DNA of 64,000 nt from a plasmid. Shown here piece by piece: positions 3,001-9,000 of this stretch; position 1 is the stretch's first letter; each line of letters begins with the position of its first letter. The position numbers are program-made. The stretch lies in NCBI RefSeq assembly GCF_988243305.1, contig NZ_OZ547138.1; one strand, given 5' to 3'.

Positions 3001-6000
3001 ATGACGTGATCGGGGATCACTGACGGAAGTGTGATGGAAAGCGCTCTGCCGGCAGTGTCCAGCAGTCGGCCGTTTTCCACCCTGCCGAGCAGAGCAGAGT
3101 CATTACACTGTTCCCTGAGCGCGGCCATCAGGCCCGGGGTTTCTGTAGCCCAGACAAAAACACGTTGCTGGCTGATGATATGACTGACGGTATCCGTCCC
3201 GGGAATCCCGAGCTGAGTGGATGTCAGCCGCCCTCCGGCTGTCCGTCGTTCCGGATGCTGATGCAGGTAATCATTGATGGCGTTCATATAACGAATGAAC
3301 GTTGCTGCCTGTTGTGTATTTTCTGCGGCCTGATGACGGTGTTCGCTGCGGGAGAGCTGACTGGTGAACCAGAAATTGCCTGTGGTCGTGATGACCATGA
3401 TGAACACGATGAACCAGCCCATAAGGTTATTCCTGTGGACGATCTGTCACCCGCAGCAGACATTGTGCTGTGCTGGTCCGGGCATACAGCGGTTTTTCCA
3501 CCGGGGTGTAGAGTGCGAAGAGCTGTTCCAGCGCCTGGCGGAAACTGCCGGTGAAAACCAGAGGGGCATCGATGCTGTAGTTGACAGGTGTTTCCCAGCG
3601 TAGCGTCCAGGTGCCGTGGGGGCATTTTTCGGATGATGTCCAGCGGGCCAGTCCGTCTTTCAGGGTGGTCCCTTTTTCCATTTTCCACTGCCGTGGCGGT
3701 ATGACCTTCTGCGGTGGTGGCACTACCGGTTTCGTGGCCACCGGGGCTGGCGTGGTTGTTCTGCTCTCTGGTGTTCCGGATGTCCCGGTGGTGGTCTGAG
3801 CCCGGGAAACGCTGACGGCAGGTGTCACTGGTGTCGGGCCTGCCGGCGTTGCGGTGCTGCCCCTGAACGGATTACGCGGTGTATCAGCAGCTTTCTGTGA
3901 ACCCTGCGGTGCCGTGACGTCGACCGGCGGTGTTGCAGAGGTCGTGACAGTCAGTATTTTCCTGTTCCAGTCCATATGTCCGTAAAGCTGCTGGCCGGCC
4001 AGCAGCGCATTCAGTGCCCGGTGCCACTGGTCATTAACGGACCAGACGGGGAGGCGTTTGTTCAGTGCCGGTATGGCAGCGTTCTGTTGCCGGAACTGCC
4101 AGCCGGGTGGCAGCAACGGGCGTATCCAGTCACTGACGGAGCGCTGACGTGCCTCACGTAAATAAACGACGGATGACTGACCGGGTTTACCGGTCATAAC
4201 CAGTGCGGGCAGCTGTGTGGCCTGAAGGAGCGGGCGGGGAGGCAGTGCGGTACTCTGGCTGCTGACTGCGGTTGTGGGCGTCGCTGTTGTTGTCGGGCGG
4301 GGCGGCGTCACAGGGCGGGTCACCGGTGGCGGAAGCAGACGTTTTTGCGTATGGGCGATAATGGCAGCGCTTTCGCGAATTTGTCCGTCGACGAACACCA
4401 GAGCCGGAGGCGTGGTGTCAGGAACAGGCGTGGCATTAAAGGCCGTACAGCCGCTGAGTAATGACGGCAGAAGGAGTGTAAGTGATTTCTTTTTCATAGA
4501 ATAAATCCGGTATGTATCGGGTTACGGTATAAGACAGGTGGCTGGTAACAGGTCTTCAGATAAATATAATATCATCAGGATATTGATGATGAACATTCAT
4601 GTTCGGGGTGATTATGAAAACTAAAACATTCCGGTTCCGGAAATATAAAAAGAAAAACGTCCTGCTGCAAATAATAGTTTCCAGGAAACAAGTGATATTG
4701 TTACGCAATATTATGACGGACTCTTTATTGTTTTGCTCGATAGGTTTTGTGTTTATGAATATGTGTGATTCAAAATATACGTTGATTTCTGGTGAGGGTG
4801 GTTTACGTGCTGATTGTGCCGATTATTTATTCTTTGCCGTATATGCAATTGCGTTGCTAATGATAATTTTATGGATGACAGCTTCAGTTATTTATTCTAT
4901 TGAAGAATATACGAGTCAGGAAAAATACGGTAAAAGTAAAGTCTATAGTTACTTCTGGTTTTTTATCTGGTTTTTTGTTTTTAACTGTGCTGTTTATTCT
5001 TCTCTGAAGGCAATAAATATAAAAGATATAATCAGCTAATGGCAGCAGAGGGATTCACGATAAAACCAATGACGTAACCTGTTCCCGAGCAATAAAGGAC
5101 TGTTGCCGGGGATGTTTTTCGTGTATCCCATATCTTTGAATCTGTATCAGATGGCGTGTGTTCAATGACCGATAAACTGGCCGGAATGGTCGTGTTAAAA
5201 AAAATACTTAACGCGCCTGTAAATAAAGCAGCGGGAAGAGAAATGCTGGAATGATATATCCATGTGGAGAGTATCAGTGCCAGAATAGCATTTCCTGTAT
5301 TTATATAATAAAACCAGTCGTTATGGCGCAGATACCGGGTAACGGAGAGCCCCCTGGCGGACACGCCATCCGGGAAATGCAGCGCCAGAAGTAGGAGATA
5401 AATAACTGCTATTTCAGCCAGTGTAACAGGCAGCATAATGGAAAGACGTGACAGGAATGACATCAGCATGTCACTTATGACAGGATTAAGTCGTGTTGAA
5501 GATAATTCGTAAATGCCGGTTGTAAAACAGAACATATAACCCAGTCCGGCATAAGCAATAATGGAAACCGGCGTCAGTTTGTTTGATTTGTATGTTTTAT
5601 ACGTTCTCGTTGCTTCTTTAATGGTTAAAATTGTCAGCAGGGATGTGAGAATCATAACGGGTGGTATATATATGCAGATATATACCTGCAAAGGGTACTC
5701 AGTATCGTATACCCGGGTTGTTAATATAACGGACAGACTCAGTAAGGATATATTTCCGAAATGAAACCAGCGATACTGTTGAAGATACTGGAAAACAGTG
5801 ATGCCTGAAGAAAATGTCCATTTGCCGCGAGCATAAATAACAACCCAGAATAAAGAACTAATGATACATACCATCAGTATGCCGGGTAATATTGCAAAAA
5901 TAAATGATGATGTGCTCATTATTAAATCTCCATCAGCATGGTGATGCTTAAATTTTTACGGTTGTGAGGTGCGTAATAAATATCATGTGTAGTTGTGAAT

Positions 6001-9000
6001 AATAGCGTCAGCAACATATATAAAAATAATCTGCATTCCTGAAAAATATCGTGGTTGTGAAATATTTAATTTTTACCCCCTTTTATGGGGGATGAAAAGC
6101 AGGCTGTCAGGCTATAACTGAACGCGGTTTCTGGATTTTGGTGCTAATGTCACATCTTTCCATTCACAGCTGCTTCCGGGGATACGCTCTTTGCGTCGTA
6201 TTATACGGGAGTTCTGACACACAATAATTAAGCCATTGTCTGCCGTCTGAAATGGCATTATAGCGATGTTTATATCTTCTGTTGCAGGAATATAACTGAC
6301 TTTCTTTTCACATGTATTGGTGTATATGACAACTCTGAATTTTTCTGCGGACATTTTCAATCCTCTTTTAAACCAGAATATCCCGTGAGGGCATTCTTTG
6401 TGAAAAAGATGCCGGAAAAATTCCGGCACGGGGATTAAACCTGTTGTGGTTCTGAGTTATCCGGAGCGGTTACCGGTTCGCTGACATCCGGAACCTTTTC
6501 CGGGGCAGGCATGACCAGTGGACGTGTCAGGGCTGTAAGTCCTTCACCGGATAAACCCACCTCTTTCAGCAGGGAGTCGATGAGCGGAGCCTGTGTACGG
6601 TAAGCCAGAGCGGCGGTTACTGCCTGTTCAGCGAGATTTCCGCCACTTATGTCGGTTGTTGCTGTTTTACCGCGGGTAACACCGCCATTCAGACCATCCA
6701 CCTGAATGATTTTAATACCGTCAATGGATTTCATTGGTTCTGTGGACTTCTCTATGACGGCAGGTAATGCATCCAGCAGGGCAAGACGGAAGCGGAGGCT
6801 GGTCTGCTCATCCGAAAGCACGTTAATGGCATCGTTCAGTGCGCGCTGTGCTTCTGCTTCTGCCAGACCTTTCTGACGGGTGGCCTCCGCCAGTTCAATA
6901 ATTGCTGCTGCCTGGAGTTCGGCTGCTTCTTTTTCAGCCTGTGCGCGAACCGTCAGTTCAACCGCTTTCGTTTCAGCTTCCTGAGCAGCAGCAATCAGGG
7001 CAACCTGTTTGGTACGGTCGGCCTCCGCAGTCTGGCGGGTGGTTTCCACATCCTGCTGGGCCTGTACGGCCTCAGCCAGTGCTTTACTTGCCCGGGCTTC
7101 TGCCTGTGACTGCTCTTCCGATTTTGCCGCCACGGCAATGGCTCTGGCCTGGCTGGCGATTTCGGTTGCCTGCTGTTGCTCAATTTCCCGTATGGCCACT
7201 TCCCGTTCGGCTTCGACCTGGCGGGTACGCACTATCTGCTGTCGTTCGATTTCGGCTTCCTCTATCTTACGTTCAGCCAGAATTCGCGCGGATTCTGCTT
7301 CACGACGTCGTTCAGCTTCAATAGCAGCAATACTGGCACTCTGCTCTGCCGTACGGGTTTTTACCCGTTGTTGTTGCTCCAGAGTCATGAAGGCTTCCTG
7401 CTGTTCAATCTCCAGACGTCGGGAGAGTGCATCCCGGTTTTTTTCCCTGATGGCCACTTCAACATCCTGCTCAACTTCGTTGCGTTCGCGGCGACGACGT
7501 TCTGTTTCCTGGGTCAGAAGGGTCAGGCCTTCAGCATCAAAGGCATTGTCAGGATTAAAATGTACCCGTGCAGTCTGGTTGAAACTTGTCAGCGACACAC
7601 TTTCAAGCTCCAGACCGTTTTTGGATAAGTCTTCCGCAACGGTGTTCTGCACACCCTGAACAAAGTTCTCGCGGGCATCCTGTAAATCCTGCATGCTCAT
7701 TCTGGCCGCCGTGGCCCGTAGGGCATCAACAAATTTATCCTCGACCAGACTACGCAGATCTTCAGGTGTGAGCGTGCGTTGTCCCAGCGTCTGGGCTGCA
7801 GTGGATATTCCTTCGGCTGATGGTTTTACCCGAAGAAAAAAGGCAACGGCAACATCAACACGCATACGGTCGCGGGTTATGAGACTTTCAGCCGCTGCAC
7901 GACTGACTTCCAGCTTCAGGGTGTTCATGTTGACGGGAATTGTTTCGTGAAAAATGGGCATAACAATTGCACCGCCACTCATTACCACTTTTTGGCCTCC
8001 CAGACCTGTGCGGACAAAGGCCTGCTCTGCCGATGCCCGGCGGTACAGGCGGGCAAATATCAGCCCGATAACGAACAGGGTGAGGACCAGCGCTATAACG
8101 GTAAACAACCATCCCGGAAGATTAAACATAGTGAGAACCTCTGTATATGTCGGGATTAAAGAACATCCGGCCAGGGATTCAGTTCGCCCAGCCAGCGGGA
8201 ACCGGAAAGACGGCAGACAATAATCACTTTGTCTCCTCGTCTGAATTCTTTCCCGGCCTCCGGCTCCAGCAACAGGTAATGAACCTGCCCGAAGCGGTCT
8301 GTGAAGCGACCTTCACAGGGGGAACCCGCCACTGCGTGATAACCAGTGATGGTGGCCATACAGCCGATGAATGCCTCCTCGGTGAGCGCCGTTGTTTCAT
8401 CACGGGGTAACCAGGGGGCAATCAGTCTGCCGGTGCGGTGTACGAGAGGACATGTCAGCAGCAGGCAAAGTGGTGCAAGGAGAATGTTCGGGGCAGGAGC
8501 CTGCAGCAGATGAATAATAAGACCCTGCAGGAGAATGCCGGATATACCAAAAAAACCTGCCAGCATACAGAGGACGATCAGCAGGGGGATCCGTCCGATG
8601 TTCAGCCAGTCCAACGCCTCTCCTGTCAGACCCTCCGGTAAATCAGGTGTATCCATAGCTGAAGAGAGGGAGTGTCCGCAGAGCAGGGCGATAAGTTCAG
8701 CGATACCAGTAAGCAGAACAAAAGTCAGGGCTGCCAGATAGGGTGCGTTATACGCGGTAAGTAACGTCAGTGTCATTTTTCCTCCTGTGGCAGGTCAGTC
8801 AAACAACATTATGGCGTGAAGCTTCCGCTTCTTTAATTGTCAGAAGAAGCATATCGTCAGTCATCAGAAGACAAGGGGATGTCTGCAGGAGGGGATGATA
8901 ACAACAGAAGCCTCACGCCGGAATGCGCTTTATGACAACCGGAGAGGACGGATAATCAAAATTGGGACATCCACATCAGCAAACCGCTATTTGCGAAAAA

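Follow-up and report, generated by a model that had tools for sequence, protein, structure and literature searches.

The low-GC island and its genes

The stretch of DNA analysed here, called the window throughout, comprises 64,000 nucleotides of the plasmid contig NZ_OZ547138.1 (assembly GCF_988243305.1), and belongs to an I-complex plasmid. At positions 4599-6354 it holds an island of low GC content with the gene pilI, a gene for an inner-membrane protein of 295 amino acids (aa) and, convergent with the latter, a gene for a small membrane protein of 141 aa. With a probability of about 0.9, this island is the head of the pil operon, which encodes the type IVb thin pilus, in an I-complex plasmid of the IncK/B/O/Z type; this 5'-proximal part stands out in its composition, varies in structure, and comprises pilI, an orphan fused duplicate with eight transmembrane (TM) segments, and the convergent 141-aa gene.

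The interval has a GC content of 38.2%, against 52.9% for the whole window, and lies close to the minimum for stretches of 1756 bp in the 64 kb (minimum 0.380; 0.08% of windows are lower). Along the GC profile, values of 0.55-0.62 in pilL drop to 0.33-0.44 at about 4400-6400 and return to at least 0.53 in the flotillin gene. The GC content at third codon positions (GC3) is 0.35 in the 141-aa gene, 0.41 in the 295-aa gene and 0.40 in pilI, compared with 0.59-0.64 from pilL to pilO. Since synonymous sites show the dip as well, it does not reflect amino acid composition alone. Three open reading frames (ORFs) map to the island: one of 295 aa at 5032-5919 (-), one of 146 aa at 4599-5039 (+), and one of 105 aa at 6112-6429 (-). 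An earlier note on this DNA had described an AT-rich island with a 295-aa polytopic membrane protein, located between the pil operon and a flotillin pair, and the composition (including the lowered GC3), the ORF and the flanking genes (Table 1) bear this description out.

The gene closest to the flotillin pair within the island is pilI. It matches the Pfam family PF10623 with E = 2.6e-31 and 107.5 bits (cut-off 25) over model positions 2-76 of 77, and its product is 32% identical to PilI from plasmid R64 (E about 1e-10). In the identical plasmid NZ_CP145695, the Prokaryotic Genome Annotation Pipeline (PGAP) calls the same 243-nt coding sequence (CDS) as "PilI type IV pilus biogenesis protein". 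The previous statement that pilI is not recognisable here was thus wrong. The gene has a Shine-Dalgarno sequence (AGAGGA) 7 nt 5' of its ATG, and a ratio of nonsynonymous to synonymous substitution rates (ω) of 0.05-0.09. It is the first gene of the pil cluster, on the same strand as and upstream of pilL, pilM, pilN and pilO, a layout equal to that of R64. The ORF listing stretches pilI to 105 aa by means of a GTG start at 6429; however, the terminator-like hairpin that directly follows the flotillin stop lies within this extended version, which supports the ATG at 6354 as the true start. Together with a promoter-like sequence upstream of pilI, this hairpin possibly marks the start of the pil transcription unit, although as a lead only.

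The 295-aa gene is preceded by a Shine-Dalgarno sequence (GGAG) 8 nt upstream. When its product is aligned with itself, residues 1-132 match residues 153-286 at 25% identity, with a score of 100 and z = 10.9 relative to shuffled sequences. Judging from this internal alignment, the protein is a tandem duplication and fusion of a unit of about 145 aa with four TM segments. Hydropathy and the secondary structure taken from AlphaFold2 (AF2) both give 4+4 long helices (in a model with a predicted local distance difference test score, pLDDT, of 38), and the charge pattern agrees with an N-out/C-out topology that places the K/R-rich loops inside. The gene has an ω of 0.29-0.43 with a synonymous excess (p = 0.0009-0.002), against 0.9-1.3 for both off-frame readings, and zero indels relative to variants that have diverged by 8% at the nucleotide level. 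On this pattern of substitutions, the ORF is evidently a real gene.

The 141-aa gene carries a Shine-Dalgarno sequence (GGGGTGA) and overlaps the convergent 295-aa gene by 8 nt at their 3' ends. The 35 N-terminal residues of its product include 11 K or R and no D or E, and are followed by three hydrophobic segments (about three TM segments). This basic tail is predicted to be cytoplasmic, and the predicted topologies of both the 295-aa and the 141-aa proteins obey the positive-inside rule. The ω of the gene is 0.25-0.38 (p = 0.003), with a synonymous excess in this frame only. The decisive evidence for a real gene comes from the IncK2/Z plasmid pHN7DS11, where a 131-aa homologue (38% identity, E about 1e-14) persists at the equivalent position and in the same orientation even though the DNA can no longer be aligned by blastn. 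The 141-aa protein was also considered as a third copy of the unit of about 145 aa, a candidate that was rejected (hhalign probability 0.5%).

Table 1. Features of the low-GC island and of its surroundings, in window coordinates
Feature	Position	Strand	Evidence
pilO	19-1314	-	
pilN	1335-2954	-	
pilM	2985-3422	-	Pfam PilM
pilL, TcpQ-domain lipoprotein; first conserved pilus-biogenesis gene downstream of the island	3427-4497	-	Pfam TcpQ (E = 1.7e-16); annotation
Divergent intergenic region between pilL and the 141-aa gene; conserved, alignable in all slot types	4498-4613	.	Alignment
TATAAT within the 4498-4613 region	4565-4570	+	Motif
Gene for the 141-aa small membrane protein (ORF open from 4599, 146 aa)	4614-5039	+	PGAP CDS in NZ_CP145695; Shine-Dalgarno; homologue; ω
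Gene for the 295-aa inner-membrane protein, about 8 TM	5032-5919	-	ORF; Shine-Dalgarno; hydropathy; ω
Unit 2 of the 295-aa protein	5035-5469	-	Internal alignment
Terminator-like hairpin, 70 nt past the 141-aa stop, within the 3' end of the 295-aa gene	5109-5129	+	Consensus scan alone
Unit 1 of the 295-aa protein	5470-5919	-	Internal alignment
AT-rich spacer (34% GC) from pilI to the 295-aa gene	5920-6111	.	Relatives carry other genes at ~6023
Putative recombination/deletion junction	~6023	.	Comparison of relatives
pilI, 80 aa	6112-6354	-	Pfam PF10623; similarity to R64 PilI; PGAP
Promoter-like TTCACA-16-GATATT upstream of pilI	6404-6377	-	Consensus scan
Terminator-like GC-rich hairpin and T-run directly after the flotillin stop	6429-6409	-	Consensus scan
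Flotillin (Band_7 + Flot), upstream of the island	6435-8129	-	Pfam domains
YqiJ/NfeD-type protein, upstream of the island	8156-8776	-	Pfam domains

The gene pair and its slot in related plasmids

The island region is 100% identical to the E. coli plasmid NZ_CP145695 (IncI-gamma/K1, MOBP, MPF_I) and to two further plasmids. In pHN7DS11 (NZ_MN276083, L007), the counterpart of the 295-aa gene is an unannotated ORF on the minus strand (3995-4426) for a 143-aa protein with four TM segments, which is convergent with and abuts the 131-aa gene. Its product aligns with each half of the 295-aa protein at 28% identity (E = 3e-12 and 7e-9). By these alignments, the genes for the unit protein and the small protein make up a conserved convergent pair that comes in two deeply diverged forms: 295+141 in the window and 143+131 in IncK2/Z plasmids. 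In searches of PLSDB with tblastn, the unit family is found in 149 plasmids and the small-protein family in 140, and about 100 of the 149 have the 143-aa form, at a place where the record annotates nothing. The convergent 3' ends are tight in every version, either overlapping by 8-11 nt or directly abutting.

The slot between pilI and pilL is a mosaic. One arrangement (L017-L019) has three units in a row, pilI-143-295-(141)-pilL, where the 143-aa gene begins 27 nt after pilI, a gap that suggests operon-like packing. In L017, the 503-bp segment with this intact 143-aa unit gene replaces window positions 5974-6129, and L008 holds a truncated remnant of the 143 type. The ω of the 143-aa unit is 0.56, not significantly below 1. 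The plasmid pO104_H21 (L002) has the window arrangement with an additional 864 bp at about 6023, which hold the gene for a 111-aa CxxC protein together with a TM ORF of 94 aa. The commonest arrangement, found in pCERC6 and pMS7163B, consists of pilI, the 111-aa gene and pilL, and keeps window positions 4498-4702. As pCERC6 retains the first 89 nt of the 141-aa gene, it is a deletion derivative without the rest of this gene and the whole 295-aa gene; its flanks are 97.8% (pilL side) and 99.6% (pilI side) identical to the window.

The 295/141 segment is kept in about 50 of 461 related plasmids. Among 5426 complete E. coli genomes, the module is present in 45, on 47 plasmids and no chromosome, and eight of the eight retrieved contexts shown share one layout, in the pilI-pilL slot of I-complex plasmids. 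Both genes are always plasmid-borne and always located between pilI and pilL. By its ω of about 0.3-0.4, the pair is evidently under relaxed purifying selection. Because most sister plasmids with near-identical pilL and pilI flanks have lost it, the 295/141 module is apparently a dispensable accessory module of this plasmid lineage. Plasmids of the B, K and Z groups make thin pili, according to Bradley (1984) as far as that study is cited in PMC6361801.

The 111-aa soluble CxxC protein (L002 5128-5463; L005 2705-3040), a gene that is not in the window, fills the pilI-pilL slot in most IncB/O/K/Z plasmids. In pMS7163B its gene has been named "pilK" by position (PMC10286972); the protein has no similarity to R64 PilK (blastp, E up to 0.05) and no Pfam match. 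The unannotated hydrophobic ORF of 94 aa from pO104_H21 (L002 4585-4869, -), inside the 864-bp segment missing from the window, was compared at E up to 0.001 with R64 PilJ, PilK and TraD, with the 111-aa protein and with both the unit and the small-protein families, and resembles none of them. Many database variants of the 131-aa family (P0044, P0047, P0049, P0052, P0055) are frameshifted or truncated just past a conserved "SEGG(W)" motif, which could reflect homopolymer sequencing error, gene decay or phase variation.

Data from transposon-directed insertion-site sequencing (TraDIS) are available for surface mating of pMS7163B, with a log fold change of +2.95 for pilI and +3.20 for the 111-aa "pilK" (PMC10286972). 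The authors of that study treat neither gene as a repressor, and report that pil genes are not needed for surface conjugation. Since pMS7163B has a type-1 slot (pilI, then the 111-aa "pilK") without the 295/141 module, these data are uninformative on the module.

Searches for other relatives of the pair

Outside these plasmids, the pair appears to be orphan. The 295-aa and 141-aa proteins have no match in Pfam (E up to 10), NCBIfam or PDB sequences and none in PADLOC at E up to 1, and give chance-level matches only against PHROGs (E of at least 0.09). When sequences and profiles were run against 5.8 billion proteins in a word-indexed search, only E. coli I-complex relatives came back. An exhaustive phmmer search of 1.84 billion cluster representatives found five matches, all from one family: besides four fragments or variants of the 295-aa protein, they include the 143-aa unit, at E = 1.6e-4. 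A relationship to colicin immunity proteins was considered and rejected, as hhalign against the ColIb-P9 immunity protein gives 0.07% and 0.37% and no Pfam match is seen at E up to 10. At 4300-6600 there are no flanking direct or inverted repeats, no recombinase ORF and no Rfam family at E up to 1, and the deletion junctions carry no clear repeat. No description of the 295-aa or 141-aa genes was found in the literature.

Comparison of the slot with R64 PilJ, PilK and TraD

In R64 (NC_005014), the gene order is traB-traC-traD-pilI-pilJ-pilK-pilL, and pilJ and pilK have GC contents of 35.5% and 36.9%. Since these two genes are as AT-rich as the island, low GC seems to be a standing property of the slot and no mark of recent import. 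In blastp against R64 PilJ, the 295-aa protein has E = 0.15-0.3 and the 146-aa ORF has 4.4; tblastn of PilJ against the whole 64-kb window finds no match at E<1; and hhalign gives 9% for the units, over a 15-residue YLQQY motif only, and 0.3% for the 141 family. For PilK and TraD, blastp values are at least 1.6, and tblastn on the whole window returns chance matches alone (E of at least 0.5), located elsewhere. The hhalign probabilities are 0.2% and 0.06%.

The architectures do not agree either. PilJ, of about 150 aa, has two N-terminal TM segments and a hydrophilic C-terminal half, whereas the units have four TM segments and no hydrophilic domain; the 141-aa protein, with its basic N-terminal tail and three TM segments, is equally unlike PilJ in hydropathy. 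PilK combines N-terminal TM segments with a soluble domain common with TraD, a domain that the window proteins do not have. R64 PilK and TraD (L004 16693-17283 and 18350-18916) are paralogues, with 25% identity over 177 aa (E = 1.5e-15), and share a C-terminal "SHL(F/L)TxAR..KLI" region.

Clear homology to PilI, PilJ or PilK would, by the earlier note's own account, refute its reading; such homology was found for PilI, through Pfam and the similarity to R64, and not for PilJ or PilK, so that the latter two are indeed not recognisable by blastp, tblastn or hhalign. The suggestion of a replaced pilus-accessory module fits these results, with unrelated membrane genes at the pilJ/pilK position that are AT-rich as R64 pilJ and pilK are. 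The suggestion of divergent PilJ and PilK finds no support (blastp E of at least 0.15, hhalign of at most 9%, different architectures). Absence of these genes is not confined to the window: IncK2 plasmids are listed as "NA" for R64 TraD, PilJ and PilK (PMC10286972, Table E), and the IncI2 plasmid TP114 has no pilI, pilJ or pilK. According to Sakai & Komano (2002), pilK is among the genes that R64 needs for thin-pilus biogenesis.

Plasmid setting

Every pil gene in the window is on the minus strand. Past the flotillin and YqiJ/NfeD pair lie a TraC-like protein, 37% identical to R64 TraC, and a NusG-like TraB, so the pair sits between traC and pilI, which is the position of traD in R64. IncK2/Z plasmids such as pHN7DS11 do not carry it.

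Other low-GC patches (500-bp windows below 0.42 GC) are found in the accessory and leading regions, at 15101-17700, 19901-21600, 23101-24300 and 29701-31700. A Tn3-family transposase gene (25643-28192, -) stands between two of them, and a gene for an ImpB-family polymerase (31380-32651, -) adjoins the last one. The colicin Ib gene (19033-20913, +), whose product is 99.5% identical to Cib from ColIb-P9, lies in a low-GC patch apart from the island, with its convergent immunity gene (20934-21278, -) 100% identical to the ColIb-P9 version.

Proposed role and alternative explanations

The 295-aa and 141-aa proteins would insert in the inner membrane of the donor and act together, filling the niche of R64 PilJ and PilK without being related to them, and the module is apparently dispensable for building the pilus. 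The tentative suggestion made here, which falls somewhat short of even odds, is that the pair assists or modulates the thin pilus or mating as a non-essential accessory and does not itself build the pilus. Since the 141-aa gene is placed between pilI and the 295-aa gene on one side and pilL on the other, in antisense orientation, its transcription would be antagonistic to read-through from pilI to pilL and into pilL-pilV; such mutual interference would couple the module to pilus expression in an excludon-like manner. A bolder and rather improbable version holds that the pair is an unrecognised specificity or switch module for thin-pilus mating, private to the I-complex, which would work either as an excludon-like antisense gate or as a cognate toxin/antidote or exclusion pair in the membrane, with plasmid "types" set by its diverged alleles and its orphan units.

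Several observations weigh against the interpretation of the island as a pil operon head with a working module. Operon membership and antisense interference are inferred from the geometry alone, and a consensus scan finds no more promoter and terminator motifs in the region than in shuffled sequence. The two proteins have no homology to any characterised family. The AF2 models of the 295-aa protein are unusable, with a pLDDT of 38.4 from the single sequence and 38.3 from a hand-built alignment of variants, concatenated 143-aa units and swapped halves, in which MAFFT merely offset the swapped rows. The 143-aa unit accompanies either type of small protein (L007 versus L017), and there is therefore no strict pairwise co-variation. 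Finally, a pair with hardly any part in conjugation, or none, would account just as well for its loss from about two-thirds of relatives, for the frameshifted 131-aa variants and for ω values of 0.3-0.56.

Some of these features would also suit a self-contained membrane module of the toxin/antidote, immunity or exclusion-specificity type, in which the 3-TM and 4-TM proteins are cognate and which rides in the pil region outside pilus function. Such a module, in which the surplus units (the 295-aa fusion, the orphan 143-aa gene and truncated remnants) would behave as an orphan-immunity array, is unlikely, even though it would account for the discrete alleles at 28-38% aa identity inside flanks with 89-97% nucleotide identity, for unit genes that are duplicated, fused, truncated and reshuffled, for a constraint looser than that of pil genes (ω of 0.3-0.56 versus 0.05-0.24), for the frequent frameshifts of the small gene, and for the joint loss of both genes in the commonest deletion. 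An antisense small membrane gene resembles the immunity genes of pore-forming colicins, and cib and imm of ColIb are convergent as well. However, hhalign stays below 0.4% against ColIb immunity, no Pfam, PADLOC or PHROG family is matched, no secreted toxin gene adjoins the pair, and the 143-aa unit occurs beside small proteins of either type. Were the pair a generic selfish or defence module, it should moreover turn up in other contexts, whereas it is found solely between pilI and pilL. More doubtful still is a decaying or functionless remnant in an AT-rich and probably H-NS-bound spacer, whose DNA, in front of pilL, would at most have a regulatory or silencing effect. The deletion of the segment in most relatives, the common remnants and frameshifted forms, the ω of the 143-aa unit and the fact that PGAP leaves its gene uncalled in about 100 plasmids all agree with such decay, and T-rich coding strands can mimic membrane proteins. 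Decay is nevertheless difficult to reconcile with a synonymous excess in frame only (p about 0.001-0.002 for the 295-aa gene and 0.003 for the 141-aa gene), with ORFs that stay intact and free of indels across 8% nucleotide divergence, with proteins conserved at 28-38% identity beyond the point where the DNA can be aligned, or with good Shine-Dalgarno sequences and positive-inside topologies in both genes.

The two remaining explanations concern the origin of the genes. Recent foreign cargo, for example with a defence or metabolic function, inserted by chance in the transfer region would explain why GC and GC3 fall markedly below those of the flanking pil genes, but is very improbable: the hallmarks of mobile elements (flanking repeats, an integrase) are missing, no donor lineage appears among the 1.84 billion representative proteins, PADLOC gives no match, and low GC extends to the conserved pilI and to every alternative slot filler, including R64 pilJ and pilK. 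With the genes occurring only in this slot of I-complex plasmids, the cargo proposal of the earlier note is left unsupported. It is scarcely probable, too, that the genes are cryptic orthologues of R64 PilJ and PilK that do the same job and have diverged past recognition. Slot, low GC and membrane location are the same, the YLQQY-type motif of 15 residues matches PilJ (hhalign 9%), and R64 and IncK2 plasmids share just 23-41% identity in their other pil proteins (PMC10286972, Table E), so a faster gene could drift undetected. Against this stand the negative blastp and hhalign comparisons, the different architectures (4+4 TM and 3 TM segments, with no soluble domain), the opposite strand of the 141-aa gene, and the absence of both genes from most sister plasmids with flanks (pilL and pilI) 93-99.6% identical to the window; given this absence, they cannot be essential in the way that R64 pilK is.

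Significance

I-complex plasmids (IncI1, IncK, IncB/O and IncZ) are major carriers of extended-spectrum beta-lactamase (ESBL) and AmpC genes, and their mating, both in liquid and in the gut, is governed by the thin pilus. At its head, the pil operon has a recombination-prone, AT-rich slot with a filler that depends on the lineage: pilJ and pilK, the 111-aa CxxC protein, or the orphan membrane pair. The annotation is corrected in that pilI is present, the 295-aa protein is a fused duplicate, and about 100 deposited plasmids carry the 143-aa gene without an annotation. Should the pair modulate pilus expression, exclusion or the fitness of the donor, differences in transfer among resistance plasmids that are otherwise almost identical would become easier to understand; should it have no effect, the locus would simply be an accessory region in decay.

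Comparison with known systems

The immunity proteins of pore-forming colicins, represented in the window by ColIb imm (20934-21278), resemble the 141-aa protein as inner-membrane proteins with three or four TM segments, encoded at low GC on the opposite strand to a convergent neighbour. They differ in sequence, with less than 0.4% in hhalign for ColIb immunity and no Pfam colicin-immunity match, and in that no cognate toxin adjoins the pair.

The exclusion proteins TraS of F and ExcA of IncI plasmids are small, hydrophobic inner-membrane proteins encoded inside transfer regions, AT-rich and with highly diverged alleles between similar plasmids. The pair shares with them this size, hydrophobicity, AT-richness, location and divergence of alleles, and differs in that ExcA is encoded elsewhere in R64 and that no exclusion phenotype has been described for the pair.

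Antisense arrangements of the excludon type have been described in Listeria. As in an excludon, a gene here lies antisense within the path of a longer operon transcript, which would make the two expression states mutually antagonistic. The likeness is purely geometric, and pilL may have its own promoter in the conserved 116-bp region at 4498-4613.

The closest system is the head of the R64 pil operon itself. Both are located between the traBC regulators and pilL, both begin with a homologous pilI (PF10623), and in both the interval from pilI to pilL holds small AT-rich genes (35-41% GC) for membrane proteins. The slot varies around R64 too, as most IncI1 plasmids do not have TraD and PilJ (PMC10286972, Table E) and pESBL does not have traD. 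In contrast to R64, the window proteins show no similarity to PilJ or PilK in sequence or architecture, one gene of the pair runs on the other strand, the 295-aa protein is internally duplicated and has eight TM segments, and the module is dispensable in sister plasmids, whereas R64 pilK is listed as required for thin-pilus biogenesis. The content of the low-GC slot is an uncharacterised gene pair, and a variant of the already known variable head of IncI-type pil operons.

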